IMG/VR virus record: IMGVR_UViG_3300044654_000030
Span: 1-58,965 of that record
DNA length: 58,965 nucleotides
Direction: 5' to 3' (one strand)
From: a virus
Lineage: Duplodnaviria; Caudoviricetes
The position numbers and the translations under genes are program-made. The notes beneath the pieces were generated by a model, which was not told the origin of the DNA, did no database searches, and saw nothing but the letters and a program-made list of their open reading frames with translations. This document shows, one piece after another, positions 1-39,720 of this stretch. Position 1 is the first letter of the stretch. Every line of letters starts with the position of its first letter.

Positions 1-120
1 ACGTCTGAGTAATTATTTTACAACCCCGAGCCCCGGGCGGGGCCCCCCCCCGCCCCCCCGCTCCCGTCGTTCCGCCAGCCGTTCTTCCGCGAGGAGCTGG
101 ACGACCTGTACCGCGACCCC

Positions 121-2418
121 GTGGCCCACGACGTCGTCATCGCCGACGACGCGGGGCGCCCGCTGTTCACCCAGGAGGGCGTCCTCGCCCCGCGGGGCTG
201 GAGCCCCCGCGCCGTCCAGATCGCCGCCTCGAAATACCTGCACGGCGACCCCGCCCAGGGCCGCGACCCCACGGCCGGCGGCCGCGAGTCGTCGATCTAC
301 CACCTCCACGAGCGGGTCGCCAACTTCATCGCCCGCAAGGGGGAGGAGCTCGGCTACTTCCCCGACCCGTACGTCGCCGAGCGGTTCCGCCTGGAGCTCC
401 TGGGCCTGACCCTCGGCCAGTCCGCCGCGTTCAACTCCCCCGTCTGGTTCAACGTCGGCGTGGGCGACTACGGGATCGTCGGCGACAACCGGGCCTGGGC
501 CTGGGTCCCCGGCGGCGACCCGGAGGGCGGGGCCGTCTGCGAGGTGCGGGACACGTACCGCTACCCCCAGGGCTCGGCCTGCTTCATCCAGTCCGTGGAA
601 GACGACCTCGAAAGCATCATGGAGCTGGCCCGCAACGAGTGCATCATCTTCAAGCACGGCAGCGGCACGGGGACCGACTTCTCCAAGATCCGCTCCCGCA
701 AGGAGAAGCTGTCCAACGGCGGCACCCCCAGCGGGCCGGTGTCGTTCCTGAAGGTCTACGACCGCATCGCCGCCACCATCAAGTCGGGCGGGCGCACTCG
801 TCGGGCCGCGAAGATGCAGACCCTGGGCATCTGGCACCCCGACATCCTCGACTTCATCCGCGCCAAGGGGCGCGAGGAGCTGAAGGTCCAGGCCCTGATC
901 GAGGCCGGCTACCCCGCCGACTTCAACGGGGAGGCGTACGACACGGTCGCGTTCCAGAACGCGAACTTCTCGGTGCGGGTGCCCCGGAGGTTCTTCGACC
1001 ACCTGGACGCCGGCCGGCCCTGGCCCCTGGTCGCCGTGACGACCGGGGCGGTGATCGAGCGGGTCGATCCGGCCGAGCTCTGGCGGGCCGTCGCCCTGGA
1101 GACCTGGCGGTGCGGCGACCCGGGCGTCCAGTTCAACGACACGATCAACGACTGGCACACGACGCCCTTCGCCCGCGACGGCACCCCCACGCCGATCAAC
1201 TGCTCGAACCCGTGCAGCGAATACCTATCGATCGATGATTCCGCATGTAATCTGGCGTCCCTGAACCTGATGCGGTTCCTCACGCCCGACGGCCGGGGCT
1301 TCCGGCCGACGCGGCTGATGGCGGCGGTGCGGCTGCTGGTGGTCGCCCAGGACATTTTAGTGGACTCGTGCAGCTACCCGACCGAGGCGATCGCCCGCAA
1401 CGCGCACGCCTGCCGCCAGCTCGGGCTCGGGTTCTCGAACCTGGGGGCGCTGCTCCAGTCCTGGGGCGTCCCGTACGACAGCGACGCCGGCCGCGACCTG
1501 GCCTCGGCGCTGACGGCGTTGATCTGCGGACAGGCGTACCGCACCTCGGCGCGGCTGGCCCGGGCGCTGGGGCCGTTCGACGCCTGGTCCGTCAACCGCG
1601 AGGCGATGTCCCGCGTCATCGACAAGCACGCCGAGGAGCTCGACCGCCTGCTGAGGCGCCTGCCCGACGGGCCGGCCGTCCGGTCGCGGGCCGAGGCCGT
1701 CGCCCGCGACGTCGCCGGGTATGCCCTCTCCGCCTGGGACGAGGCCCAGGCCCTCGGCGACGACACCGGCTTCCGCAACGCGCAGGTCACGGCGATCGCC
1801 CCCACGGGGACGATCTCGTTCATGATGGACTGCGACACGACCGGGATCGAGCCCAACCTCGCCCTGGTCGCCGTCAAGCACCTGGCCGGCGGGGGGTCGA
1901 TCCCGGTCGTCAACCGCGTCGTCGCCCGGGCGCTGGAGGCGCTCGCGTATGACGAGCCGACGCGGGCGAAGGTCTGCGCCTACATCCTCCGCCACGGCAC
2001 CGCCGAGGGCTGCCCCGACCTGGACCCCGCCGACCTGCCGGTCTTCGACACCTCGTTCGCGCCGCCCGGCTTCAGCAGGACCCTCCGATGGGAGGCGCAC
2101 CTGCTGATGACCGCGGCGGTCCAGCCCTGGGTGACGGGAAGCATCTCGAAGACGGTCAACGTCCCGCACGAGTTCTCCGTCGATCAGGTCGCCGCCTGCT
2201 ATCGCCTGGCCCACGACCTGGGCCTGAAGTGCGTCGCGATCTACCGCGACGGCAGCAAGGGCTCGCAGCCCCTGGTCGCCGCCAACGGGGCGGCCCCCGC
2301 GCCGGCGGAGGGCGATCCGGAGTCCACCTGCCCCTCCTGCGGGCACGTCGGCACCCACCCGGCCGGCACCTGCCGGATCTGCCCGAACTGCGGCACCCCC
2401 GACGGCGGGTGCGCCTAA
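121..2418 (+). CDS. nrdJ: Class II (adenosylcobalamin-dependent) ribonucleotide reductase
   Basis: Motifs FNSPVWFN, PQGSACFI, KSGGRTRRAAKM, SNPCSEY (catalytic Cys/Glu), ACNLASLN, IAPTGTISF and ISKTVN, plus a C-terminal CxxC...CxxC zinc ribbon. NrdJ-like sequence seems to continue about 25 codons upstream of the GTG. Confidence 0.93.
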   Translation: MAHDVVIADDAGRPLFTQEGVLAPRGWSPRAVQIAASKYLHGDPAQGRDPTAGGRESSIYHLHERVANFIARKGEELGYFPDPYVAERFRLELLGLTLGQSAAFNSPVWFNVGVGDYGIVGDNRAWAWVPGGDPEGGAVCEVRDTYRYPQGSACFIQSVEDDLESIMELARNECIIFKHGSGTGTDFSKIRSRKEKLSNGGTPSGPVSFLKVYDRIAATIKSGGRTRRAAKMQTLGIWHPDILDFIRAKGREELKVQALIEAGYPADFNGEAYDTVAFQNANFSVRVPRRFFDHLDAGRPWPLVAVTTGAVIERVDPAELWRAVALETWRCGDPGVQFNDTINDWHTTPFARDGTPTPINCSNPCSEYLSIDDSACNLASLNLMRFLTPDGRGFRPTRLMAAVRLLVVAQDILVDSCSYPTEAIARNAHACRQLGLGFSNLGALLQSWGVPYDSDAGRDLASALTALICGQAYRTSARLARALGPFDAWSVNREAMSRVIDKHAEELDRLLRRLPDGPAVRSRAEAVARDVAGYALSAWDEAQALGDDTGFRNAQVTAIAPTGTISFMMDCDTTGIEPNLALVAVKHLAGGGSIPVVNRVVARALEALAYDEPTRAKVCAYILRHGTAEGCPDLDPADLPVFDTSFAPPGFSRTLRWEAHLLMTAAVQPWVTGSISKTVNVPHEFSVDQVAACYRLAHDLGLKCVAIYRDGSKGSQPLVAANGAAPAPAEGDPESTCPSCGHVGTHPAGTCRICPNCGTPDGGCA

Positions 2419-2451
2419 CCCGGCCCCTCCCGCGAATTTCGCGAACTCCCC

Positions 2452-2479
2452 TTGAAATCTCCGACGACCGCCGTATCCT
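2452..2479 (+). promoter_or_regulatory. sigma70-like promoter
   Basis: TTGAAA-16 bp-TATCCT, preceded by palindrome CGCGAA-T-TTCGCG (2431-2443). Confidence 0.55.
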
Positions 2480-2602
2480 GGTTGGTACGCCTTCTTAGGT
2501 AGGATAGCCGCCAGGATTGGCGGCTGCTGGCCGCGTCCCGTGGTCGGCGGACCGCGGGGACGTGCTCATCGTCGCTGATCGGATGGCCCCAGGAGTGGCA
2601 CC

Positions 2603-2857
2603 ATGCCCGAGCACCCCTGGGTCCGGGTGGACCTCGCGCGTCGCAGCGTCGAGTGTCGTCGCTGCCGGACCGTGCTCCCCACCCCATCGACCCGGGACCC
2701 CGCGGACCTCCTTCGTTTCCTCAGGGCGTTCACCTATGTCCACCGATTCTGCCAACCCCGGCCTCCCCTGGATCGACGTCGAGGGGGACGACCTCGTCTG
2801 CCGGGCCTGCGGGACGCGGGCCGCCGTGCCGCGCGGCCTGGGGGCCGACCAACTTGA
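2603..2857 (+). CDS. Small CxxC/HxxC zinc-binding protein
   Basis: RBS CAGGAG; PW...CRRC...HRFC. Confidence 0.6.
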   Translation: MPEHPWVRVDLARRSVECRRCRTVLPTPSTRDPADLLRFLRAFTYVHRFCQPRPPLDRRRGGRPRLPGLRDAGRRAARPGGRPT

Positions 2858-2996
2858 GGCGCTGATCCGCAAGCACGTCGCGGACCACACCCACCCCGAG
2901 CGGTTCGACCTGCCCGGGGGCCCGAGTCAGCCCGGGGGCGGTCCTCGGGCCGGGGGCGAGCCGCCCGCCCCGACACCGACCGGCGGCGACCCGTGA
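2736..2996 (+). CDS. Small CxxC zinc-binding protein, paralog of the preceding gene
   Basis: MSTDSANPGLPWIDVEGDDLVCRACG...HVADH; internal ATG of track ORF 2517..2996. Confidence 0.55.
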   Translation: MSTDSANPGLPWIDVEGDDLVCRACGTRAAVPRGLGADQLEALIRKHVADHTHPERFDLPGGPSQPGGGPRAGGEPPAPTPTGGDP

Positions 2997-3193
2997 GGAG
3001 GGAGCCTATGGCCCATCGGGCAGGACCGTAGAGGGGTCCGCCCCACTCTTGACGCATAGCCCACGGCCCGGCCCGCCCCACCCTGACGGGGTGCCTTTCC
3101 CGAAACCCCGCCCGGGACGACCTCACCGGCGGGCCGGGCCCGACCATCGGCCCCGGATGGACCCCGACCGCACCCCCCCCAGGACCAACCTCC

Positions 3194-3940
3194 ATGATCG
3201 ACACCGACGCTGCGCCCGCCGCCGTCCGCGCCGCCCGCCGGCTCAAGGAGCACACCGTCTCGGCCGGCCGTCCCTTCCTCCCCCCCGTGATCGCCACGGA
3301 GCATGCCGGGCGGCTCGCCTGGCTGGCGATCGCCCCCGAGGCGGACATCGAAGCCGCCCTCGTCGCCGCGGAGATCGCCTGGACCAGCGGCACCTGGGAC
3401 GCCCTGTCCTTCGCGATGGACACCTGCTTCGTCCTGGGCGCCATCGGCGAGTCGCCCGAGGCGATCCGCCGCCGCTACCCGCCCGGGGCCATCCAGGACG
3501 CCTGGGAGCGGGGCGGGCCGGCCGCCCGGGAGGTCGGCCACGCCCTGATCGTCCACCACCAGGCCAGGGCCGGCGCCCGGCACATCGCCCTGCTCCCCTA
3601 CCGCCCCGGCACGCCCGGCCGGGCCTTCGCTTGGCTCGACGAGGGCGCCATCGCCGCCCGCCTCGGCCGCGGCGTCCGCCGCCCGGAGGCCGGCGGGCCG
3701 ATCCTCGACCGCCTCCGCCGGGTCGTCCGCCGGCCTCCCGAGATGGAGGCCGAGGACGTCCGCGCGGTCTGCCGGGAGCAGGGGATCGGCCCCCGGCTGG
3801 CCCGCGCCATCGCCCGCGACGTCGCCGACCAGGTCCTCCGCGGCTACGGCTACGCGGTCCTGGGCGAGCGGGTGCTCCGCGCCTGGTTGGACGGGGAACA
3901 TCTCACGGAGCGGGAAGTTCAAGAAGTCCTGGGGCTCTGA
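3194..3940 (+). CDS. Hypothetical protein
   Basis: 248 aa, normal composition, high GC3. Confidence 0.7.
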   Translation: MIDTDAAPAAVRAARRLKEHTVSAGRPFLPPVIATEHAGRLAWLAIAPEADIEAALVAAEIAWTSGTWDALSFAMDTCFVLGAIGESPEAIRRRYPPGAIQDAWERGGPAAREVGHALIVHHQARAGARHIALLPYRPGTPGRAFAWLDEGAIAARLGRGVRRPEAGGPILDRLRRVVRRPPEMEAEDVRAVCREQGIGPRLARAIARDVADQVLRGYGYAVLGERVLRAWLDGEHLTEREVQEVLGL

Positions 3941-3997
3941 CCGACATGGGAAAGCATCGGGCGCGCGGCGCGCCCCGTATCCCCCGAGGACCCCACG

Positions 3998-4543
3998 ATG
4001 TTCCCCTGGATGCTCTGCTGCGCCCTGGCGGTCGGGACCGAGGACAGCGTCCCCCCGCCGCCGCCGGCCCCCGCCCGCGGCTACGAGACGATCCCCCAGG
4101 CCCAGGCCGTGGGCCAGCTCCCGGTCGCGATCCCGGCCCCGGCGCCGGCGGCCCCGGCGCCGACCCCGCAGGTCATCGTCGTGGCCCTGCCGGCGGCGGC
4201 CGTGGCCCCCAGCCCCCAGGCCCCGATCACGGCATCGCCCCAGGTCGCGCCCGTCGCCATGCCGACTCAGGCGATCCAGACCACTACCGTCGTCCGCGCC
4301 CCGGGCCCGTTCCGGGCGTGCTTGGGTCGGATCGGCCAGAAGCTGATCGCCTGCGCCCAGCCGCGGACGACCACCACCCAGACCGTCGTGACCACCACCC
4401 CGGTCCAGATGCCGCTGCCGGTCGCCGCCCCGTGCGCCCCGGCCGCCAAGGCGCCCCCGGTGCCGGCGGTCGCCCCGGTCGCCCTGCCGGCGAAGGCCGC
4501 GCCGACCTGGACCTACCCCAACTTCGGATACGCACCACGATGA
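3998..4543 (+). CDS. Pro/Ala/Thr-rich protein with possible signal peptide
   Basis: N-terminus MFPWMLCCALAVG; RBS GAGG; ATGA overlap with next gene. Confidence 0.65.
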   Translation: MFPWMLCCALAVGTEDSVPPPPPAPARGYETIPQAQAVGQLPVAIPAPAPAAPAPTPQVIVVALPAAAVAPSPQAPITASPQVAPVAMPTQAIQTTTVVRAPGPFRACLGRIGQKLIACAQPRTTTTQTVVTTTPVQMPLPVAAPCAPAAKAPPVPAVAPVALPAKAAPTWTYPNFGYAPR

Positions 4544-4797
4544 CCGAGTCGCCCGTCTTCGCCCTCGACCATCTCCCCGAGCCCATGCGATCCCAGGTCC
4601 GGAGGCGGGCCGACGCCCTGGCCGACTCCTTCAACACCAGCCGCCGCGCGATCGTCCGGTTCGACCCGGACGTCACCGACCTGCGGCTCTTCCAGGCGTT
4701 CGCGCTCCAGCAGCTCGCGATCTGCTTCGTCCTGATCGCGGAGCTGACCGCCACGATCGAGACGCTCGCCCGCGATGCGGCGCCGGACGGCCCTTGA
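4540..4797 (+). CDS. Hypothetical protein
   Basis: MTESPVFALDHL..., translationally coupled (ATGA). Confidence 0.65.
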   Translation: MTESPVFALDHLPEPMRSQVRRRADALADSFNTSRRAIVRFDPDVTDLRLFQAFALQQLAICFVLIAELTATIETLARDAAPDGP

Positions 4798-4807
4798 GGA
4801 GGCCCCC

Positions 4808-5140
4808 ATGAGGATCACCATCCTGGACCACCACCAGTTCGTCGTGGTCGGCCAGCTCCTGGCCGGGGAGCAGCCCGGCCCCCGGCTCCAGCGGCGGCTC
4901 GCCGAGGCCGGCATCCCGATCCGGGGCTACTGGAGCTTCCGCCGGAAGCTCCAGATGTTGGAGCTGGCCGGCCTGGTCGTCAGCCGCCGCGAGGAGGCCA
5001 CGACCGAGGGCCACTGCGCCAGCACCGGGGCCCCGCGGGCCGTCGCCACCCGGTGGCGGGTCTACACCCTGACCGACGCGGGCCGGCTGGCCTGGGCGCG
5101 GACCCGCGACTTCTACCGCCTGCACGGGGAGCCCGCCTGA
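4808..5140 (+). CDS. PadR-like winged-helix DNA-binding protein
   Basis: LQMLELAGLVVS...RVYTLTDAGRLA wHTH signature; RBS GAGGAGG. Confidence 0.7.
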   Translation: MRITILDHHQFVVVGQLLAGEQPGPRLQRRLAEAGIPIRGYWSFRRKLQMLELAGLVVSRREEATTEGHCASTGAPRAVATRWRVYTLTDAGRLAWARTRDFYRLHGEPA

Positions 5141-5180
5141 AGAGGGCCGGGCCGTCTGGGAGGCGCACCGGGATCTCGAC

Positions 5181-5210
5181 TTGACGGAGGGGCCCGCCTG
5201 AAGGTACGCT
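5181..5210 (+). promoter_or_regulatory. sigma70-like promoter facing attP, antisense to the integrase
   Basis: TTGACG-18 bp-TACGCT. Confidence 0.45.
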
Positions 5211-5231
5211 GGTCCCCGTCTTGGGGAGACG

Positions 5232-5278
5232 CGAAACCGCCGGAAGGGGTGGCCCCCGCCACCTCCCCGGCGGTCTTC
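5232..5278. terminator. Long hairpin between convergent genes
   Basis: GAAACCGCCGG-AAGGGGTGGC-CCCC-GCCACCTCC-CCGGCGGTCTTC. Confidence 0.55.
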
Positions 5279-5285
5279 GTTGCGC

Positions 5286-6956
5286 TCAGAAGACGAGCCA
5301 GGCGCGCTCGCAGTTGGTTCGAGTGGTTGAACATCCCGTTGATGGAACTGCGAGCGCGCCGTCGTCCCCCAAGCCCAAGTCCAGACACAAGTTCAGGTGA
5401 TGGCCGTCCCCCAGGAACCGGGCGTCGAGCCAGTCCAGGATGTGCCGTCGCTGGTCCCACGTCTGGGCAGCCTGGTTCTCCAGCCCGGCACGGACCTGCG
5501 CGGCGTGCCGGGCCAGGGCCTCCGCCTTCGCGTCGATCGCGTCGTAGCCGGCCAGCAGCCCCTGGAGCTGCGCGATGCGGGCCGCGTGGCCGTCGCGCTC
5601 GCGATTCGCCTGGGCGACCTCGCGGAGGATCATGTCGCGCAGCTCGGGGTCGTCCTGCCTGCCGAAGCTCTCCATCATGTTCTGCGCCCGGCGCTCCGCG
5701 TCCTGCTTCGCCCGCTCGGCCGCGGCCAGGCTCTCGCGATGCAGGGCCTCGCCGGGCTTGTCCCGCGTCATCCGGGCGATCTCCTGCTCGATCAGCCCCG
5801 CGGTGGTGAGCACCCGGACGACCTCGGCCCAGGCGACGTCGCGGATCTCGTCGTCGTAGACGGCCCGGACGGGGCAGGCGGGCGTGCCCGGGGTGCGGAG
5901 GTGTCGGTTGCAGCGATAGCAGGGCCGGTACGCGGGCCCGTCGCCGGCGCGACGATCGCGCGTGTAGGAGACCCACATCGGGCCGCGGCAGGCCATGCAG
6001 TAGATCCGCCCCCGCAGGAAGGTGGAGGCGCGGGCGGCGCGGCCGGCGGCGTGCCCGATGCGGGCGTGATGGCGGGCGGACATCGCGGCGACGGCCCGGT
6101 CCCAGGTCGCGGCGTCCACCAGGGCCTCGGTCTTGGCGTCGTGGGCGACGGTCCAGCGCTCCCGGGGCAGCTTGCGGTACTTCTTCCGACCGATCGTCTC
6201 GTACCGGAGGTGGGTGCTGACGCCCTTGTAGACCTCGTCCCGGACGAGGGCGTGGATGATGCCCGTGGTCCAGCGGGCCCGGCGCGACCGCGGCGGCAGG
6301 CCGCGCCGGGCGCCCGGGGTCGGGACCTGGTGCCGGTTCAGCTCATCGGCGATCTCCGTCAGGGTCCAGCCCTGGTTGGCGAGCCAGTCGTAGATCCGGC
6401 GGACCCAGGGGGCGATCCGGGGGTCCGCGACGCGGGTCCGGGTCTTCTTGTCCCAGGTCAGGCCGTACCGCCCGCCGCCTTCGCCGACGAGCTGCCCGGC
6501 GTCGCGGATCTCCTTCTTGACGCGCATCGTCCGTTCCTGGATCAGCTCCCACTCGACCTCATGGGCCCACCCCCGGATGGCGAGCATCACCTTGCCGGTC
6601 GAGTTGTCCTCGATCGGGACCAGGACGCAATGGACCCGGCAACCCCGGCGGCGGAACTCCTCGACGAGGACCTGGAGATCGGTCATGTCGCGCGCCAAGC
6701 GTTCGGTGTTGTGGACGATCACGCCGCCGATGGCCCCGACGCGGGCCAGCTCGCGGATACGCCCCAGCCCGGGGCGGATGTCGGCGGTCTTCATGCCGGA
6801 GAAGCGCTCGAAGACGACGAGATCGGGCGGGATCTCCAGGCCGCGGGCGTCGGCGAACTGGCGGATCGACGCGAGCTGGGTGTGCAGGGAATCGTCGGCG
6901 TCGCCGTGCTCATCCGAGACGCGGCAATAGGCGGCAAAGGGCTTGGTCTGGCTCAT
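5286..6956 (-). CDS. Large serine recombinase (integrase)
   Basis: YCRVS catalytic motif, SG...RPGL, ERLARD; recombinase domain; zinc ribbon (CMAC...YRC...C); coiled coil. Confidence 0.95.
   Translation of the reverse strand: MSQTKPFAAYCRVSDEHGDADDSLHTQLASIRQFADARGLEIPPDLVVFERFSGMKTADIRPGLGRIRELARVGAIGGVIVHNTERLARDMTDLQVLVEEFRRRGCRVHCVLVPIEDNSTGKVMLAIRGWAHEVEWELIQERTMRVKKEIRDAGQLVGEGGGRYGLTWDKKTRTRVADPRIAPWVRRIYDWLANQGWTLTEIADELNRHQVPTPGARRGLPPRSRRARWTTGIIHALVRDEVYKGVSTHLRYETIGRKKYRKLPRERWTVAHDAKTEALVDAATWDRAVAAMSARHHARIGHAAGRAARASTFLRGRIYCMACRGPMWVSYTRDRRAGDGPAYRPCYRCNRHLRTPGTPACPVRAVYDDEIRDVAWAEVVRVLTTAGLIEQEIARMTRDKPGEALHRESLAAAERAKQDAERRAQNMMESFGRQDDPELRDMILREVAQANRERDGHAARIAQLQGLLAGYDAIDAKAEALARHAAQVRAGLENQAAQTWDQRRHILDWLDARFLGDGHHLNLCLDLGLGDDGALAVPSTGCSTTRTNCERAWLVF
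5301..5360. mobile_element. Candidate attP of the serine integrase
   Basis: Perfect 15-bp inverted arms GGCGCGCTCGCAGTT / AACTGCGAGCGCGCC around a 30-bp partly symmetric lower-GC core centred on TG-AA-CA (5330-5331). Confidence 0.7.
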
Positions 6957-6992
6957 GGGCTCCTCCTCCGGGTGTCGGGCGACGAACGGATC

Positions 6993-7022
6993 ATTTTAGC
7001 ACGAATCGGACCGCCCCGTCAA
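6993..7022 (-). promoter_or_regulatory. Integrase promoter (extended -10)
   Basis: TTGACG-18 bp-TAAAAT with TGn extension; RBS GGAGGAG before the ATG. Confidence 0.65.
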
Positions 7023-7184
7023 GGGGGCCCGATCGATCCACCGGAGGATCGCCTGCATGGCGCGGTCGCGGGCGGCGATCCGGGCCGGCGTCAGGGGCGT
7101 GCGGATGATCGTCGTGGTGATCCTGACGGCGTCGGGGGACTTGAAAGGTTGGCGGGGGTTGCGTGGTTTGCGTGGGCTGGGCAT
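6996..7184 (-). CDS. Small basic protein, possible recombination directionality factor
   Basis: MPSPRKPRNPRQPF..., between the excisionase-like genes and the integrase. Confidence 0.45.
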   Translation of the reverse strand: MPSPRKPRNPRQPFKSPDAVRITTTIIRTPLTPARIAARDRAMQAILRWIDRAPLTGRSDSC

Positions 7185-7186
7185 CG

Positions 7187-7474
7187 TCACGCCCTCCGCT
7201 CGGTGGCCGCGAGGAGCTCCAGGAGGGCGGCCCCGCGGACCCGGAGGGCCTGCCGCTTGCCCGGCGACGCGATGTCGATCGCGGGGAGGACGCCGCGCTT
7301 CCAGAGGTTGCGGATGTGGTCCGGGCTGCATTGCAACAGCCGGGCGGCCTCCTGGCGATCGAACAGGGCGTCGGGGTCGATCGTCGGGGGTTTGGCACCC
7401 AGGACGGCGGCCTCCAGGGCGTCCAGGCGGGCCACCAGGCGGGCCTCCAGGGCGGCACAGTCGGGGCAGGTCAT
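7187..7474 (-). CDS. Excisionase-like HTH (MerR/HTH_17-type) protein 2
   Basis: LFDRQEAARLLQCSPDHIRNLWKRGVLPA. Confidence 0.75.
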   Translation of the reverse strand: MTCPDCAALEARLVARLDALEAAVLGAKPPTIDPDALFDRQEAARLLQCSPDHIRNLWKRGVLPAIDIASPGKRQALRVRGAALLELLAATERRA

Positions 7475-7754
7475 CGATACGGCCTCCGCTCGCGGGCCGC
7501 GTGCCACGCCAGGACGGCGGCCCCGGTGGTCCGGAGGGACTTGTTCCGCCGGCCCCCCGGCGTGACGTCGATGGCGGGGAAGTCGCCCCGCGTGACGAGG
7601 ATGCGGGCGTGGGACACGCTGCACCCCAGCAGCCGGGCGACCTCCGGGATCGTGTACAGGGCCTCCGGGTCGATCTTCGGGGTCCGGGCCGCCTGGGCGG
7701 CCTCCAGGGCGGCGACGCGAGGTTCCAGGGCGGCACAGTCGGGGCAGGTCATCG
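7446..7754. repeat. 31-bp direct repeat (7446-7476, 7724-7754) covering the starts of both HTH genes
   Basis: TCCAGGGCGGCACAGTCGGGGCAGGTCATCG occurs twice. Confidence 0.9.
7471..7752 (-). CDS. Excisionase-like HTH (MerR/HTH_17-type) protein 1
   Basis: LYTIPEVARLLGCSVSHARILVTRGDFPA. Confidence 0.75.
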   Translation of the reverse strand: MTCPDCAALEPRVAALEAAQAARTPKIDPEALYTIPEVARLLGCSVSHARILVTRGDFPAIDVTPGGRRNKSLRTTGAAVLAWHAARERRPYR

Positions 7755-7861: not shown

Positions 7862-8272
7862 ATGGGCGACGACATCCGGAGCGCGTTCGCGAAGGCCGGC
7901 GGCGACCCGCAGGGGGCGCTGCTGGAAGTGCTGATGTTGTTCCTGAGGCACCAGCGGGACTCGAACACCGCGATCGCCGCGCTCTCGCAGGCGATCCAGA
8001 CGCAGCGCGACGACAAGCGGCTGTCGAAGATCGAGTCGCTGGTGGAGGAGTGCCGGGAGCGGCTCACGCGGCTGGAGCAGGAGATCCGGGGCCTGGTCGT
8101 GATCCTGGAGCCGGGGCTGCGGCCGGCGCTGGCGGAGCTGGCGGTCGAGCCCGAGAAGATCCTGCGCGACGCCCTGCACCGGCCGGGGGAGGGGGTGCGC
8201 CCGGCCCCGGCCATGAATCCCCAGAAGGCGACGGAGGGGACCACTTGGGGGCCGGGCGCACGGCCATCCTAG
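7862..8272 (+). CDS. Hypothetical coiled-coil protein
   Basis: RBS GGAGGT; helical composition. Confidence 0.65.
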   Translation: MGDDIRSAFAKAGGDPQGALLEVLMLFLRHQRDSNTAIAALSQAIQTQRDDKRLSKIESLVEECRERLTRLEQEIRGLVVILEPGLRPALAELAVEPEKILRDALHRPGEGVRPAPAMNPQKATEGTTWGPGARPS

Positions 8273-9908: not shown

Positions 9909-11006
9909 TTAGGTGAGCTTCTTGAAGGCGACCTGAAATTTCGGATTAAACACACAGTTGCCATAAAAATCCACAGAGAACCGCCAGCTCTTGGTGGCGA
10001 TGTCGAGGTCGGGGCCCTCGGGGACGAAGACCTGCGCCTGCTGCGACCTGAGCTCCATCATGTCCACGTTGAAGCCGTAGCCGGTCGCGGGCGTGATCCC
10101 GTACTCCCAGGTGATATCAACACCATCTTGATTGATGATATCAGAGAACCCCAGCGCGATCAGCGGGCTCTTGTCGGCCTGGCGCTCGACGACGATCCGC
10201 TCCTTGGTCCGGTAGAGGGCCTTGTACGAGCGGAACATCTCGTCGTCGCACATGATGACGTCGAGCATGCCCTTCTGGCTCTTCGACTTCTTGGCCTTCA
10301 CGATGCCGAAGCTGATGGCCTCGACGCTGTTGTTGGCCCAGGTGTTGTTGGGGCTGGCGCCGCCGGGGAACAGGCTGTCGCCGTAGTCAACGACGATGGG
10401 GCTCCAGAAGTCGAACTGCGCGTCGCCGCGGCCGTTGGGCCACGCGGGCAGGCTGCCCGGGTTCCAGGTGCCGCCGTAGAAGCCGGGGACGCAGGAGATG
10501 CCGGCGTAGGTCGCCGTCGGGGCGCCGGCGCCGTTGCCGGCGACCGCGTTGGCCGACAGGAACGACTCGATCCCGTGCATCCGCTTGGAGTTCGCGGGAT
10601 CATATCCATTGGTGTAGAATTCTTCCCCGAACGCATCTTCCATATCATCAATCAAGTCTTTACTGATATCGTCGTAAAGCTTGATGATAGCTTCAGTTGA
10701 ACGATTCTGCAAATACTCACCCTTGGTCATGGAGTCCGTGGTCGAGTACCCGCGCCAGTCGAGGAAGGCGGTCTTGTACCGGTCCTTCCGGCTGAACTCC
10801 AGCGTGTCGCCGTCGGCGAACGGGGTCAGCTTGACCCGCTTGTACTTGACCTTCCAGTCCATGCCGATGCCGGACCAGTTGAAGCTGATGCGCCCCTTCG
10901 ACTTGAGCAGGGCGGTCAGCTTACGATTGCGTAAAATATTAATTTCACGCTCTTTGATGTAATTCCGGATGGTGGAATTCACGATCCGGGACCAGGGCGC
11001 CGGCAT
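9909..11006 (-). CDS. Major capsid protein (HK97 fold)
   Basis: 365 aa; RMHGIESF, LGFSDIINQDGVDITWE, C-terminal GNCVFNPKFQ; follows a scaffold-like gene; strong RBS GGAGGT. Confidence 0.8.
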   Translation of the reverse strand: MPAPWSRIVNSTIRNYIKEREINILRNRKLTALLKSKGRISFNWSGIGMDWKVKYKRVKLTPFADGDTLEFSRKDRYKTAFLDWRGYSTTDSMTKGEYLQNRSTEAIIKLYDDISKDLIDDMEDAFGEEFYTNGYDPANSKRMHGIESFLSANAVAGNGAGAPTATYAGISCVPGFYGGTWNPGSLPAWPNGRGDAQFDFWSPIVVDYGDSLFPGGASPNNTWANNSVEAISFGIVKAKKSKSQKGMLDVIMCDDEMFRSYKALYRTKERIVVERQADKSPLIALGFSDIINQDGVDITWEYGITPATGYGFNVDMMELRSQQAQVFVPEGPDLDIATKSWRFSVDFYGNCVFNPKFQVAFKKLT

Positions 11007-12615: not shown

Positions 12616-12747
12616 GCCGCGACCATCGCGCCGAGAAACTCAGCGCGCCCGGACGTTTCGGCCCGATGATGCCCAGGCACGCGAGCCCGGCGAGAGGCGA
12701 TCGCGACCGCGATCGGCCGGGGATGGTGCGTGCCACGGGGGCAGGCG

Positions 12748-13374
12748 ATGAGCAAGGCGCAGTGGTATCCGACGCCGGAGATCGAGCGGGCGTACGCCAA
12801 CTATTCCCACGGGCTCAGGAGCCGGGTCCGGCAGCTCATGGAGGCCCTCGGGCTGACCGACGAGGAGCTCAGCCTCAAGATGGAGCGGACCGACTCCTAT
12901 ATCCGCCAGCTCCTGAGGGAGGGATTCATCCCGAGGCGGGGCGCCATCCAGGCGATGGCGCGGGTCCTGGGCGTGACGGAGGAGTACCTGCGGTTGGGCA
13001 CGATTTCCGCCGCCCCGGGGGCGGCCGGCGACGTCGAGGGCGGGGACGATGATCAGCACGACGAGGAGGACGAGGACGTGACGCCGAATCATGAGACCAC
13101 CCCGAAGGACGGGGCCGTGCTCCCGGCGACGACGACGGCCGTGCCGACCGAGCGGCCCTGCGGGGCCGAGCGGGCGGCCGCGGACGATGGGCACCTCCGG
13201 GTGCCCCCGGCGCTGGTCCAGTACGCCTACCGGTCGGGGCTCCCGCTCCCCCATGCGGACGCCCTGCTCCTGATCTGGGAGAATGCCCTGGAGACGACCG
13301 CGTTGACCAAGCGACGCGAGCCGACGGCGGAGGACTGGGGGAAATTCCACGCGGCCTTCAAGGATTTCCTGTGA
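12748..13374 (+). CDS. XRE-family HTH regulator (candidate repressor)
   Basis: RVRQLMEALGLTDEELS...IRQLLREG..P....IQAMARVLGVTEEYLRLG. Confidence 0.75.
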   Translation: MSKAQWYPTPEIERAYANYSHGLRSRVRQLMEALGLTDEELSLKMERTDSYIRQLLREGFIPRRGAIQAMARVLGVTEEYLRLGTISAAPGAAGDVEGGDDDQHDEEDEDVTPNHETTPKDGAVLPATTTAVPTERPCGAERAAADDGHLRVPPALVQYAYRSGLPLPHADALLLIWENALETTALTKRREPTAEDWGKFHAAFKDFL

Positions 13375-16173: not shown

Positions 16174-16473
16174 ATGGAGTATCCGTACACGCTTTACGAG
16201 ACTTACCACGGTGGCATCGTGGAGCACGGTGGCATCGTGGAGATCGAAAACTTCCCGACGCTCGGGGAGGCGATCGACAACGTGACCGGCTACGGCGGTT
16301 GGTGGGAGGAGGATGAGGAGCGGTCCCGCGGGCAAGTCGGCTGGATTACGGGCCCCGGTGGGCGCGTCGAGGCGACGTTCTTCGAGCGCGGCCCCGGGCG
16401 GGATCTCGTCGTCACGCTGGCGAACGGCGAGACCACCGTCTACCCGATGCCGGTCGAGTACGTGACGGACTGA
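16174..16473 (+). CDS. Acidic early protein
   Basis: RBS GAGGAG; 99 aa. Confidence 0.7.
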   Translation: MEYPYTLYETYHGGIVEHGGIVEIENFPTLGEAIDNVTGYGGWWEEDEERSRGQVGWITGPGGRVEATFFERGPGRDLVVTLANGETTVYPMPVEYVTD

Positions 16474-16478
16474 CCACA

Positions 16479-16530
16479 TCCCGGTTGTGTGTGTCGAAAA
16501 TTCGCAACGCGACGACACACACAACCGGGA
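16479..16530. repeat. 18-bp perfect inverted repeat
   Basis: TCCCGGTTGTGTGTGTCG-16 bp-CGACACACACAACCGGGA. Confidence 0.85.
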
Positions 16531-16851: not shown

Positions 16852-16944
16852 TGCTTTTTCGCCACGCGACGACACGCACGACAGAGAACGACGTATATTC
16901 GGGTGACGGGAACGAGAGGCACGCATCCGAAGGGAGAGAGCGAG

Positions 16945-17136
16945 ATGGGTTACGCGCAGGTTCCGATGGTCATTCGTCCGTTCCGGTGGCTGTTCTCGCG
17001 AACTTGGGACCGCGTCCCATGCTTCGGCGACGTGAATCACAAGACGGGCGGCTGGCGCGATCGCGCCGATGAAGCGATCTGCCGGTTGGCGGAGCTGTTC
17101 CCGGATTCGTGGTACGACCAGAACGATCCGTGTTAG
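16945..17136 (+). CDS. Early hypothetical protein
   Basis: MGYAQVPMVIRPF; followed by hairpin 17147-17172. Confidence 0.55.
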   Translation: MGYAQVPMVIRPFRWLFSRTWDRVPCFGDVNHKTGGWRDRADEAICRLAELFPDSWYDQNDPC

Positions 17137-17364
17137 GGATCACCCCGCCCACCTGCCCACCGGCAGGTGGGCCCACTCCCGGGCCCGGAACGCCGGGCCT
17201 GAGAGCGGGCCCACAAGCCCACCGGATCGGCCGCAACGGCGGTCAATCCCGAGTGCCGACGTGCAACCCCTGATGACAACCCGCCACGCGGCGGGACGGG
17301 GGACGGACCGCCCCGAGGGGCCCCAACAATGCATTGTTCGGCGCGACCAGCAAGCGAAGGAGTC

Positions 17365-31258: not shown

Positions 31259-31294
31259 AGGCCAGGCGGCTCGCGAGCCGCCTGGCCTTTTTTT
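31259..31294 (+). terminator. Rho-independent terminator
   Basis: Perfect palindrome AGGCCAGGCGGCTCGCGAGCCGCCTGGCCT followed by a T run. Confidence 0.85.
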
Positions 31295-35711: not shown

Positions 35712-36092
35712 TCAGTACCCCGACATCATCCCGGCGGGCGCGGGCGCGCCGGGCAGGGGTGGCCGGCCCATGCCCATCCCCGGCGGCAGCGCGCCGGGTG
35801 GCATCCCGCCGGGCGGCCCCTGGTCGGCGCCGCCCAGGCCGGCGTCGGCCAGGCCGAGCATGTGCAGGAGGTCTTCCAGGCCCATCTGCGGGTCCTGGGG
35901 GCCGACGTTCAGGTCGGTCGGGTCGGGGCCCAGGCTGGCCGCCAGGGCGGCCAGGAGCGGGCTGTCGGCGAAGTCGCCGTCGGGCGGGAGCGACCCGCCC
36001 GGGGGGAGCTGCGGGCCGGGGGGCATCCCGGCGCCGGGGGGCGGGCCCATCGGGCCGGGGCCCATCATCGGATGCGGTGCGGGCGGGAACAC
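35712..36092 (-). CDS. Pro/Gly/Met-rich small protein
   Basis: Fills the gap between late genes; RBS GGAGG. Confidence 0.6.
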   Translation of the reverse strand: MFPPAPHPMMGPGPMGPPPGAGMPPGPQLPPGGSLPPDGDFADSPLLAALAASLGPDPTDLNVGPQDPQMGLEDLLHMLGLADAGLGGADQGPPGGMPPGALPPGMGMGRPPLPGAPAPAGMMSGY

Positions 36093-36095
36093 GGA

Positions 36096-38648
36096 TCAAC
36101 CTCCCGGGGGAATGATGCCGAACTGCTGCAAGAAGGCGCGCCGCTGGAGGTGCTGGGGGTGCCCCGCGCCGTACCAGCCGGTGACGTCCTGGAACCACGA
36201 CGCCGGGGTGTAATACGACTCCAGGGCGGCCTGGCCGTAGCGCTGGGGCAGGAGCTGGCGGATCGTCTCGTGCATCGGGCTGCCGGGGACCGTCGCCCCG
36301 GGGATGCGCATCAGCTCGTCGATCGCCTCCTCGTGGGACTGCTTCTCGTTGTACCCCGGGTGCGACTTGTCGAAGTACCGGCCCAGGACCGAGAGGTTCG
36401 GGTCGGAGCGGATCGCCTGGTACGGGTCGGCCCCGGCGCCGGCGGCCGGGTTCATGGCCCGCTGCACGGCCGGGATGTCCTCGGCCTTGCCGCCCTGCGT
36501 CAGCACGAACGGGGCGAGCAGCCGCGGGTCGTTGGCGACCGCCCGCAGGGAGGCGAGCGGGTCGCGGGCCGCCTGGACGGCCTGGGCCCGGTAGTGCTCC
36601 CCCTGGGCAGCGGCGAGCTGGGCCTCGGACGCGGCCCGCTGCCGGGCCAGGTCCCCTTCCTGGAGGGCCTGGAAGGCGGCGACGGCCTGGTCCGGCGAGC
36701 CGTGAGCCGCCATCCATCCCAGGCGCCACCGGCCCTCCGTCATGGGGTCGAGCGTCGGTTGCGGCGGGCGGGACGCGAGGGGGTCGGGGCCGCGCCCGTC
36801 CAGCCACCGCAACGTCGGCGAGTCCCGCTCCTGGGAGGCCGGTGCCGGGGCCGGGGCGGCGCCGGCGGCAGGCGCCTCGGCCGGGGACTCCGACGTCTGG
36901 CGCAAGAGCTGGGCCCGGCCCGCGCCCGGGGCGCCGGCCGCCCGGGCGACGGCGGCGGCCGGCGGCGCCGTGGCATCCCGGGGCATGAGCTGGCCGGGGT
37001 GCTCCTCCGCCCAGCGGATCTCCGCCAGCTCGTCCGCGCGACTGCGGTTCGGGTCCGGCGGCGGCGATTGCGTGCCCGCGATCGACGCCGGCTCGCCCGC
37101 GGCGAGGACGGGGGCGGGGACGGTCGGGGCCGCCGGCGCCGCGGGCGCGGCCCCCGGCTCCCAGGAGCGCTTCAGGGCCAGGCCCTCCTCCGGCGTCAGG
37201 TCCCGCCCCCGGGTCGCCGCCGAGTGGAGGCGTGCGCCGCCGAGCTGGAGCATCTGCCGGAACCCGGCGGGGTCCGCCCAGGCCGGGCCGAGCACGTACT
37301 GGCCGAAGTTCCAGGCCGCCCGCGCGGGGATGGTGACGATGCCGTGGAGCGGAGTGGTCAGGTCATACCACTCCTTCGCGGTCTGCGGGCGCCGTCCCGG
37401 TCCCATGCCGGTGGTCGCCTTGAAGGCGTCGCTCACCTGTTGGAGGGCGCCCTGGCCCATGCCCCGGAGCGTCGCGCCGGGGTGCGTCATCAGGCCCATC
37501 AGGGCCTCGCCCGTCTCGTCGGGGTAGGCTAAGGCGCCGACGGCCGCCGCGTTGATAGCGGGCATCGCCCGGCCCATGAACCGGTCCGCCCGCGCCCCGA
37601 GCCCCGGCCGGGGCGTCGCGGCGGCGGCCGCGCCCTCGGCGGCGGCGGGCGGGGCGGCGGCGGGCGGGGCGTGGGCGGCGGTGGTGGTCGTGGTCGTCGC
37701 GGTCGGGTCGGGGGGCGGGGTGCCGCCGGTCGGGGGCGGGGTCGCACCAGCGGTCGGGGGCGGGGTCGCGGACGGCGGGACGACCGGCGCCGTCGGGGGT
37801 GGCGGGGCGGCCGGTGCGGGCCGGGTGGCCCCCCCTCGCGGGGAGGGCACGACCGCCCCCGCCCAGGACCGCATCCGCTGCGCCCAGGACCGCGGGGCAG
37901 CCGGGGCGGGCGCCGCGGCCGATGGAGTCTGGGCGTGGGGCGGCATGTAGGGCGGCGGCTGTCGGGGCGGTGCCGATGCGGAAGCCGGGGTCGCGGGCGG
38001 TGCGCCGGCCGGCGCCCGCCTGGGCAGCCGGGCCGCGGCGGCGGCCGGGGTCGTGACCGGACGGGGCGTTCGCGGCAGGGCCGCCGCCGCCGGGGTCGTG
38101 GGCGGGGCGCCGGCCGGCGCCTGCGGGGCCGGGGTCCGGTAGGGCGTGTAGTCGGAGCCCGTGGACCGGCCGCCCTGGGGGGACGGCACCCGCGGCGGGT
38201 GGTACGGCGCGTAGCCGCCCGTGGACCGGCCGCCCTGGGCGGACGAGGGCGTGAACCCCGGACCCGGCGGGGTCGGGCCCGGCAGCGGGATCGCCGGCCG
38301 CTGCGGGCCGGGCGCCGGGAGGGCCGCCGTCGGGCGGCCCGGGGGCAGGGCGCGCGGCCCGGTCGCCTGCTGGTAGGTCGGGCCCGGGAGGGTGTATCGG
38401 GGGCCGGGAGGCGTCGCGATCGGCACGGGGTCGGGGGAGAGGGCGGCGCCCCGGGTCGGATCGAACCGCCGGGGCGGCCGGGCGAGCAGGGCCGCCGGAT
38501 CGGACGCGGGGGTGGGGACGCGGACCGGCCTCGCCGCGCCCCGGGCGGGGTCGAACCGCCGGGGCGGCCGCTCGACCTGGCCCCGCCAGAAGTCGGCGGC
38601 CGACTCGTACGGCCAGGTCGGGCCGGGGAGGGTGTACGGCGGGGGCAT
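36096..38648 (-). CDS. Low-complexity Pro/Ala-rich putative internal virion protein
   Basis: 850 aa; internal duplicated motifs. Confidence 0.6.
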   Translation of the reverse strand: MPPPYTLPGPTWPYESAADFWRGQVERPPRRFDPARGAARPVRVPTPASDPAALLARPPRRFDPTRGAALSPDPVPIATPPGPRYTLPGPTYQQATGPRALPPGRPTAALPAPGPQRPAIPLPGPTPPGPGFTPSSAQGGRSTGGYAPYHPPRVPSPQGGRSTGSDYTPYRTPAPQAPAGAPPTTPAAAALPRTPRPVTTPAAAAARLPRRAPAGAPPATPASASAPPRQPPPYMPPHAQTPSAAAPAPAAPRSWAQRMRSWAGAVVPSPRGGATRPAPAAPPPPTAPVVPPSATPPPTAGATPPPTGGTPPPDPTATTTTTTAAHAPPAAAPPAAAEGAAAAATPRPGLGARADRFMGRAMPAINAAAVGALAYPDETGEALMGLMTHPGATLRGMGQGALQQVSDAFKATTGMGPGRRPQTAKEWYDLTTPLHGIVTIPARAAWNFGQYVLGPAWADPAGFRQMLQLGGARLHSAATRGRDLTPEEGLALKRSWEPGAAPAAPAAPTVPAPVLAAGEPASIAGTQSPPPDPNRSRADELAEIRWAEEHPGQLMPRDATAPPAAAVARAAGAPGAGRAQLLRQTSESPAEAPAAGAAPAPAPASQERDSPTLRWLDGRGPDPLASRPPQPTLDPMTEGRWRLGWMAAHGSPDQAVAAFQALQEGDLARQRAASEAQLAAAQGEHYRAQAVQAARDPLASLRAVANDPRLLAPFVLTQGGKAEDIPAVQRAMNPAAGAGADPYQAIRSDPNLSVLGRYFDKSHPGYNEKQSHEEAIDELMRIPGATVPGSPMHETIRQLLPQRYGQAALESYYTPASWFQDVTGWYGAGHPQHLQRRAFLQQFGIIPPGG

Positions 38649-38651
38649 CGC

Positions 38652-39710
38652 TCAGCCTCCGGGCAGGTTGTAGCCCCGGGGGCCCGGCCCGATCCGGACG
38701 CCGCCCTGGGGCTGGAAGCCGCGCGGGGCCTGGAGGAGCTGCGGCTGGGGCTCGCCCGCGAACGCCTCGCGAATCCGGTCGTAGCCCCGGGCCATCGTGT
38801 CGGCGTACGCGGTCGGGCTGGTGACGAGCGTCCCCAGCGCGTTCAGGGTGTTCCGGGCCGCCGCCGCCGGCCCCGCCACCTGGGGCGACACCACGGCGCT
38901 CGCCAGGTCGCCCCAGCCCTCGCCGGACGCGAGCCGGCCCAGGCCGGCGTTGAACGTGTTGTGGTGGCCGGTGTCGTACCCCAGCGCCCCGGCGACGGCG
39001 TCGTACGGCGACCGCAGGAAGTCCGTCGAGGCGGGGCCCAGGGCATCGACGGCCCCGCCGATCGTCTCCATCGGGTGGCTCGCGAACCGGAGGGCCCCCT
39101 CGGGGTCGGCCGCCGCGGCGGTCGCCAGGTTCAGCCCGACCCGGCCCGCCATCCCGCCGGGGGTCCGCAGCAGCCCGCGCCCGGGCGCGGCGGCCGGCTC
39201 GCGGCCGGCGACGAGCCCGGGGCGCACGGCCGGCTCCGGGAAGCCGAGCCGGGACGCCCCCGAACGGATCGGGCCGCGGGCGGGGGCGGGGGGGCGCGCC
39301 GGGGAGGCCGGGCCCGTCCCGGCGGGGTACACGGGATGGGCCGGGTCGAGCGGCCGCAAGGGGGCGGCGACCGGCCCCGGGGGGGTCGGACGCCGGATGG
39401 GATAGGCCCCGAACGGCATCTGCGCGATCCGCTCGTCGGCGAGGTGATCCACCAGGCCCTCGTAGCCCGTGCGCGGCAGGGGCCGCACCGGGAACATCCG
39501 CTCGCCCAGTCGGGCGCCCGCCTTCTGGATCGTCTCGCCGAGGAGGGTGTCGTCGCCGCCGCGGCGGCCGATCGTCCCCGGGCCGGCGGACAGGGCCGGG
39601 GAGAGGCGGCGGAGCACCCCGCCGGCGCGCCGGAGCATCCCGCCGCCGGGGCCGCCCGCGGCGGGGGCGGGCGGGTTCGCCGCCTGGGAATCGGGCTGGT
39701 CAAGAGGCAT
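38652..39710 (-). CDS. Putative internal virion protein
   Basis: 352 aa, Gly/Ala/Pro-rich; synteny. Confidence 0.55.
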   Translation of the reverse strand: MPLDQPDSQAANPPAPAAGGPGGGMLRRAGGVLRRLSPALSAGPGTIGRRGGDDTLLGETIQKAGARLGERMFPVRPLPRTGYEGLVDHLADERIAQMPFGAYPIRRPTPPGPVAAPLRPLDPAHPVYPAGTGPASPARPPAPARGPIRSGASRLGFPEPAVRPGLVAGREPAAAPGRGLLRTPGGMAGRVGLNLATAAAADPEGALRFASHPMETIGGAVDALGPASTDFLRSPYDAVAGALGYDTGHHNTFNAGLGRLASGEGWGDLASAVVSPQVAGPAAAARNTLNALGTLVTSPTAYADTMARGYDRIREAFAGEPQPQLLQAPRGFQPQGGVRIGPGPRGYNLPGG

Positions 39711-39720
39711 CGGCCGACCC

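Follow-up and report, generated by a model that had tools for sequence, protein, structure and literature searches.

The 3' end of the integrase gene of a soil phage contains a 60-bp dyad-symmetric element (5301-5360) that is, on balance, probably the attachment site of the phage, attP. The phage is represented by IMG/VR record IMGVR_UViG_3300044654_000030, a linear contig of 58,965 bp that was analysed whole and is called the window here. It has a G+C content of about 72% and a CheckV completeness of 88%, and its gene layout, judged from the predicted genes, is that of a temperate tailed phage. The integrase gene, int, occupies 5286-6956 on the minus strand, and its reading frame passes through the centre of the dyad and continues for 14 codons beyond it.

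The open reading frame and its translation give a 556-residue protein, Int, with the architecture of a large serine recombinase (LSR): a resolvase catalytic domain, a recombinase domain and a zinc-ribbon domain with an inserted coiled coil. The Pfam domains Resolvase (residues 8-155), Recombinase (182-294) and Zn_ribbon_recom (314-379) were found, with PF00239, PF07508 and PF13408 all scoring over the cut-off. In an AlphaFold2 model built from a 51-sequence alignment (mean pLDDT 88), long helices (403-492) are inserted between the zinc-ribbon strands, and the last secondary-structure element is a strand at residues 521-525. The pLDDT falls to 50, 42 and 32 over the last three blocks of ten residues and is below 50 for residues 539-556, and the tail looks disordered in this model. 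Comparison of Int with 1.84 billion representative sequences using HMMER yielded 10,461 relatives at E ≤0.001, none of them more than 38% identical; the closest (33-38% identity) all come from JGI or Logan metagenome contigs. The HMMER alignments of the six best relatives stop at Int residues 527-534, and the conserved fold finishes at about residue 529. Other searches were less productive: a word-index protein search gave a best match of 31% identity, a PDB sequence search matched the catalytic domain alone, and tblastn matches in cultured phages (≤27% identity) were uninformative. A single-protein query with Int and a profile of its relatives (alignment A2) each found no relatives in viral contigs or genome contigs, and a search with alignment A1 found loci L009 and L010 alone.

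Repeat finding and direct reading of the sequence show two arms of 15 nt each, 100% complementary and separated by 30 nt. On the minus strand, the left arm (GGCGCGCTCGCAGTT, 5301-5315) encodes NCERA (residues 548-552) and the right arm (AACTGCGAGCGCGCC, 5346-5360) encodes GALAV (533-537); the repeat spans codons 533-552, within the last 25 codons of int. The repeat thus starts a few residues past the fold, in the low-confidence tail. Positions 5328-5333 read TGAACA, and the centre of the dyad is 5330|5331 (AA). The spacer (5316-5345) has a G+C content of 16/30, which places it in the lowest 3.4% of 30-nt segments. A previous reading of the window from its letters alone (the sequence-only reading) had described the arms, a 30-bp core of lower G+C and a position in the last ~25 codons, all as found here. 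Its claim of partial core symmetry around TG|AA|CA stands for the centre, TGAACA; the symmetry itself is weak, with 7 of the 15 inner pairs of positions matching, barely over background.

The repeat is no chance product. Three perfect inverted repeats of at least 15 bp with a spacer of at most 60 nt occur in the window (5301-5360, 16479-16530 and 31259-31288), against 0.065 per sequence in Markov shuffles; any such repeat was present in 5.5% of 200 shuffles. With 30 positions compared on each side, the dyad at 5330 scores 22/30 (z 4.7; mean 9.1, sd 2.7), which is the joint highest score of the window together with a centre at 17190. Codon usage in int also changes at this place. The G+C content at third codon positions (GC3) is 0.93 over the whole gene, and codons 532-550 hold the only 10-codon segments of int with a GC3 of 5/10 or less, down to 2/10; these segments begin at codons 532-541. 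The confinement of this collapse to codons 532-550 indicates a constraint at the DNA level besides coding. Exact copies of the arm motif are restricted to the two arms themselves, and with up to three mismatches it has 9 matches in the window versus 6.5 expected. Since the motif is found nowhere else in the window, it is not a repeated operator.

An attP would be expected within about 500 nt of the recombinase gene and as a dyad-symmetric site of 40-60 bp with a non-palindromic central dinucleotide; the element lies inside int, measures 60 bp, scores 22/30 and is centred on AA. Known LSR attachment sites adjoin the LSR gene, and Durrant et al. (2022) kept LSRs no more than 500 nt from the site (PMC10083194). 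In the structure of the LI integrase, the attP half-site is 25 bp long, with a 9-bp zinc-ribbon (ZD) motif at positions 16-24 (PMC3783163). The perfect arms of the window begin at position 16 from the centre, as does the LI motif, and enclose an inner part that is symmetric at 7/15. We propose the left arm as the outer motif of the P half-site (positions 16-30 from the centre), the right arm as that of P', and AA at 5330-5331 as the crossover dinucleotide. Among the controls, about 60 nt separate the phiC31 site from int, which lies downstream of it, and the int stop of TP901-1 is about 30 nt from the start of the record. For Bxb1, a string listed as 'Site1/Site2' beside attB (10.1101/110254), and taken here as attP, ends 1 nt before the int ATG.

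The L009/L010 integrase provides a parallel. This LSR has 570 residues and is 31% identical to Int, and the last 36 codons of its gene in L010 contain a 17-nt inverted repeat (15/17 positions matching) with a 14-nt spacer, 48 bp in total and again centred on AA. It is the top dyad of the 11-kb locus (18/24, z 4.7). The L010 repeat is an independent parallel at the same place in the tail as the repeat of the window.

The state of the contig to the left of int bears on the same question. At its left end (121-2418, plus strand) lies a gene for a class II (B12-dependent) ribonucleotide reductase (RNR) of 765 residues, a short form without the C-terminal TSCPD domain. Other short forms on small contigs share 58-60% identity with it, and the cellular enzymes of about 1000 residues from Isosphaeraceae such as Isosphaera, Paludisphaera and Singulisphaera share 51-53%. 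Because the RNR is short, lacks TSCPD and is only 51-53% like the enzymes of Isosphaeraceae, the left 5.3 kb is phage DNA and not a host flank. In the source soil runs, contig depth is 18-23 and even on both sides of 5330. We count the phage nature of the left flank and the even depth across the site in favour of attP. The same kinship suggests that the host is probably a planctomycete of the family Isosphaeraceae, in agreement with the earlier guess of a host in Planctomycetota.

A wider survey lends modest support. A motif pattern retrieved 31 high-GC viral loci, 22 of which encode an LSR according to hidden Markov models, and 14 of these could be analysed. The other eight were dropped: the matches in L018 and L020 are partial, the 3' end lies off the locus in L021, L026 and L030, L022 and L044 lack downstream DNA, and L034 encodes the same protein as L027. 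The best local dyad falls in the tail zone in 3 of the 14 (L028, L038 and L041), compared with roughly 0.5 expected, and the tail-zone dyad ranks second in L033. A top-three dyad lies 120-360 nt beyond the stop codon in five other loci.

If the dyad is attP, an Int dimer would bind the two half-sites, its zinc-ribbon domains contacting the perfect outer arms (from position 16 outwards) and its recombinase domains the weakly symmetric inner part. Cleavage at the central AA (5330-5331) would follow, with strand exchange between attP and the bacterial attachment site, attB, of the host, probably the Isosphaeraceae planctomycete. In this genome of 72% G+C, the int frame would continue for 25 codons through attP, beyond the end of the fold (~529); as the frame runs on past the fold, the site would sit within the low-confidence tail. 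After integration, int would form the extreme edge of the prophage, a classical arrangement, and its last 14 codons (codons 543-556, STTRTNCERAWLVF, 5289-5330) would be exchanged for host sequence. The arithmetic behind the 14-residue replacement proposed previously is right: Cys542 and Ser543 are the residues on either side of a cut at 5330/5331. We infer the binding of Int to the dyad, the position of the cut and any effect on stability or activity.

Integration would alter the int transcript as well. A G+C-rich hairpin at 5239-5275, between int and the convergent gene at 4775-5140 (plus strand), is likely a bidirectional terminator: the fold of 5225-5290 has an energy of −39.4 kcal/mol (z −3.2), and a terminator-like call covers 5256-5273 followed by TCTTCGTT. 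Integration at 5330/5331 would separate this hairpin from int; neither the terminator hairpin nor the 15-bp stem of the repeat would remain on the int mRNA. Retroregulation by lambda sib follows a related logic, in that integration parts int from a downstream RNA hairpin and the fate of the int mRNA follows the integration state. The sib element lies past attP, outside int, and acts via RNase III, whereas in the window the stem itself would be split.

Several results weigh against this interpretation. Exact half-sites gave no matches, the int-side half-site in metagenome and viral contigs and the other half-site in metagenome contigs, and the two arms with a gap of 26-34 nt gave none in viral contigs. 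No attL/attR junction, attB or close relative was found in the collections searched. The central proposal of the sequence-only reading, that the element is an attP, agrees with position, size, geometry, codon anomaly, uniqueness and the homologue parallel, and is in that respect partly supported. Relatives above 38% identity are absent, and the comparison of homologous DNA rests on L009/L010. In the source soil runs, a 2,672-bp contig crosses the site with 0 differences and a depth like that of its neighbours, and no joint or loose end at 5330 was seen among the matches listed. Assembled Logan contigs drop rare forms, so the contiguous form in the soil runs says nothing about integrated copies. 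Separately, outer motifs of attB sit 5 bp inward relative to those of attP (PMC3783163), and a pattern resembling such an attB, in which 16-26 nt separate the arms, had three matches in viral contigs, in unrelated contexts and at about chance level; these were rejected.

The arms also resemble a hairpin more than a binding site. Both are perfect as far out as position 30, which is atypical of an attP and exceeds in length and regularity the 25-bp half-site contacted by protein; such long perfect arms would be expected from selection for a hairpin. Folding of an 81-nt stretch, as RNA or DNA, is strong, at −40 to −44 kcal/mol (z −4.7 and −5.5). It is possible, if rather unlikely, that the repeat is a regulatory nucleic-acid hairpin and not a recombination site; a hairpin role, by itself or added to that of an attP, is a serious rival. 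The repeat could form a stem near the 3' terminus of the int mRNA, where it would serve RNase III cleavage or mRNA stability or attenuate convergent transcription, or it could act as a cruciform or as a binding site for a protein unrelated to Int. The perfect 15-bp stem, to which about five further pairs could be added with a bulge, is consistent with such a role, as are the folding energies of −40.4 kcal/mol on the int strand and −44.3 kcal/mol on the plus strand, with none of 200 shuffles as stable. The window is moreover rich in strong hairpins (16479-16530, 31259-31288 with a T-run, 8195-8261 and 5239-5275), and the best dyad in the Bxb1 control was a terminator. However, the repeat lies within a coding region, has a 30-nt loop and no T-run, and no terminator was called there, while a better terminator hairpin (5239-5275) follows 25 nt on. 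A hairpin alone leaves the low G+C and low GC3 of the spacer unexplained, and likewise the presence of a repeat with another sequence in the corresponding part of an integrase of 31% identity. The two roles are not exclusive, and a hairpin and an attP may coexist in the same element.

The dyad scan is unspecific, which also counts against attP. In the Bxb1 control the top dyad was the terminator and attP came second, in the phiC31 control attP was tied second, and in the surveyed high-GC viral LSR loci the tail zone holds the best dyad in only 3 of 14. Other strong dyads occur in the window at 16479-16530 and around 17190. We consider it distinctly unlikely that the true attP is one of these (16479-16530 or 17163-17218), or lies in the missing 12% of the genome, and that the repeat in the int tail is incidental. 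The first candidate has 18-bp arms around a 16-nt A+T-rich centre and, at 52 bp, the typical size of an attP; the second, centred on 17190, equals the top dyad score of 22/30; and the contig is only about 88% complete. Both candidates are, however, 9.5-10.2 kb from int, whereas LSR sites normally lie within a few hundred bases of the gene, and neither has a parallel of the L010 type. The first is placed like an intergenic RNA hairpin, 6 nt past a stop codon and 50 nt ahead of the next gene.

These two elements merit description in their own right. The repeat at 16479-16530, 6 nt after the stop of the gene at 16174-16473 (plus strand), forms a perfect 18-bp stem (CCCGGTTGTGTGTGTCG ... CGACACACACAACCGGG) without a T-run (−40.8 kcal/mol, z −7.1). 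It may function as an RNA hairpin between genes or as an operator, or be another candidate for the attachment site or the origin. The element centred on 17190 (~17163-17218) is an imperfect G+C-rich palindrome in a non-coding gap of about 480 bp (16852-17328) between early genes of the plus strand, a region that has the lowest G+C content of the genome (0.65); an origin or an operator are possibilities.

That the window is an integrated prophage, with a hybrid attL/attR at the site and host DNA at 1-5330, is scarcely credible: int lies only 5.3 kb from the contig end, the left genes lack phage-family matches and an integrated prophage would also give equal depth on both sides, but the arms are identical and symmetric where a B/P' hybrid would be expected to have ZD motifs offset by 5 bp (PMC3783163), and the RNR at 121-2418, as a short TSCPD-less form with 51-53% identity to the Isosphaeraceae enzymes, is no host copy.

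With the dyad taken as attP, the question arises what the exchanged tail does. The suggestion that it is a degron, and that integration works as a stability switch, is speculation, its sole basis being the hydrophobic C-terminus, disordered in the model, that ends in WLVF. One finding leaves some room for it. In the LSR clade of Int (alignment A3), 37 of 51 members have a tail of at least 15 residues past the conserved end, and of these 37 long tails 22 contain a strand-like motif of alternating hydrophobic residues, versus 9.2 expected when each tail is shuffled. Judged from these sequences, the hydrophobic motif is a semi-conserved protein feature, which the tail of Int itself fails to match under the strict definition. 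When hydrophobic motifs were counted over the final 30 residues in 143 relatives, the result (92, with 50 expected) was confounded by the conserved zinc-ribbon strands, and the tail-only count took its place. Many tails of the clade consist of a linker rich in Ser, Thr and Arg followed by the alternating motif (LSLGW, FTLAF, ITLGF or IVAFGF). A hydrophobic end lies past the dyad centre in the window (WLVF; tail at codons 530-556), in L010 (IVAFGF; tail at 6546-6650) and in L033 (VLEVWL; tail at ~8572).

It may be conceived that attP was placed on purpose between the end of the fold and the hydrophobic tail throughout this clade. The free phage would then make an Int with an extra module, whether a degron, an autoinhibitory element or a strand that binds a partner, which Int of the prophage would lack, and integration would reset the stability or directionality of the integrase. 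We regard this scenario as quite improbable. If true, it would give serine integrases an equivalent of Mx8 IntP/IntX and of integration-dependent immunity.

The layout proposed for the window has precedents, and the contrast drawn in the sequence-only reading with the BPs-type repressor switch only was overstated, since DsiB, Mx8 and SSV are closer. The gene of DsiB, an LSR of ssrA-specific islands in Dehalococcoides, overlaps attL/attP at its 3' end, and its authors considered that the protein is perhaps fully functional in one state only and that the overlap may affect regulation (McMurdie et al., 2011; PMC3146451). DsiB is like the proposed layout in being a serine recombinase with an attachment site inside the 3' end of its own gene. 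It differs in belonging to mobilisable islands, which have the tmRNA gene as their target and a direct repeat of 20 bp; it also works together with another, small recombinase, DsiA, and is known from integrated copies. In contrast, the window is a tailed phage in unintegrated form, with perfect dyad arms and an overlap of just 25 codons.

In Mx8 and SSV, the frame of a tyrosine integrase crosses attP, and in Mx8 (IntP/IntX) integration makes a new int 3' end with changed properties (PMC6070905; PMC4383910). Both share with the proposed layout an attP within the integrase coding sequence and a recombinant gene after integration. Unlike Int of the window, they are tyrosine recombinases with another attachment-site architecture and with tRNA genes as targets, and for Mx8 the changed activity was shown experimentally. 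The C-terminal part exchanged in Mx8 is reportedly far larger, a point attributed to Tojo in 1996. The serine integrases of Bxb1, TP901-1 and phiC31 resemble the layout proposed for the window in having a short, partly symmetric attP directly beside int. In these phages, however, the crossover falls outside the frame and the protein is the same in phage and prophage, and the arms are imperfect in sites of about 40-50 bp, whereas the arms in the window are perfect and the site measures 60 bp. In integration-dependent immunity (BPs, Brujita, CyranoPS and Mycobacterium abscessus prophages), attP lies in the 3' end of a gene and the phage form of the product carries a degradation tag (PMC8092301; CyranoPS preprint). 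There, the C-terminus of the product differs between phage and prophage, as it would in the layout proposed here; the gene is, however, that of the repressor, the integrase is a tyrosine recombinase, and the effect of the tag has been demonstrated.

Literature text searches, with supplements outside their scope, returned no serine integrase with attP inside its own gene beyond DsiB, and no case in a tailed phage. A supplementary table of the Durrant 2022 study is said to contain 6,207 LSR-site pairs and could include further cases. The annotation as attP is plausible; given the precedents for the layout, it is a reasonable but unproven assignment and not a discovery. If it holds, this planctomycete-type soil phage would add one more case, and the only one in a tailed phage that these searches brought up, of a serine integrase gene rewritten by its own reaction, with two forms of Int, one in the phage and one in the prophage, and thereby a built-in record of the integration state. 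The logic of such rewriting is proven for the BPs and Brujita repressors and for the Mx8 tyrosine integrase, and merely suggested for DsiB. For collections of orthogonal integrases, the element may also be of interest as a 60-bp attP candidate, since its integrase is very divergent (≤38% identity to any of the representative sequences).

Two tandem paralogous genes of the HTH_17 (excisionase/MerR) type, at 7471-7752 and 7187-7474 on the minus strand, lie directly upstream of int, the stop of one overlapping the start of the other (ATGA). Each matches Pfam HTH_17 with an E-value of about 9e-8, the PHROG category is 'excisionase and transcriptional regulator', and they are candidate Xis or directionality factors, or regulators. 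Together with int they make up the lysogeny corner of the genome. A sigma-70-like promoter match on the minus strand (6993-7022; TTGACG-18-TAAAAT, with TG), a match to the consensus only, precedes the int start codon by 37 nt. In runs X3 and X5, which have lower depth, variant contigs carry clustered differences at 6945-7169, just upstream of the int start, and at 2488-4285, from which it follows that related strains of the phage share the same soil. Among the differences listed for these contigs, none falls in 4788-6944.

Elsewhere in the window, early genes occupy 12 to 31 kb on the plus strand and include an HTH_3 repressor-like gene (12730-13374). The structural gene block, with tail-fibre-like matches, spans 32 to 59 kb on the minus strand, which also carries the gene for the large terminase (57520-58956). 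Within the structural module, the G+C content reaches 0.79-0.81 at 36000-40000, where two open reading frames of the minus strand (36096-38648 and 38652-39710) are without family matches. The gene at 9909-11006 (minus strand) has an unusually low G+C content at first and second codon positions (0.50 and 0.42). It has a partial PHROG match to 'major head protein' (E 2e-19, residues 5-157) and sits in the lysogeny/early region, distant from the structural genes, so that a moron or a remnant is conceivable.

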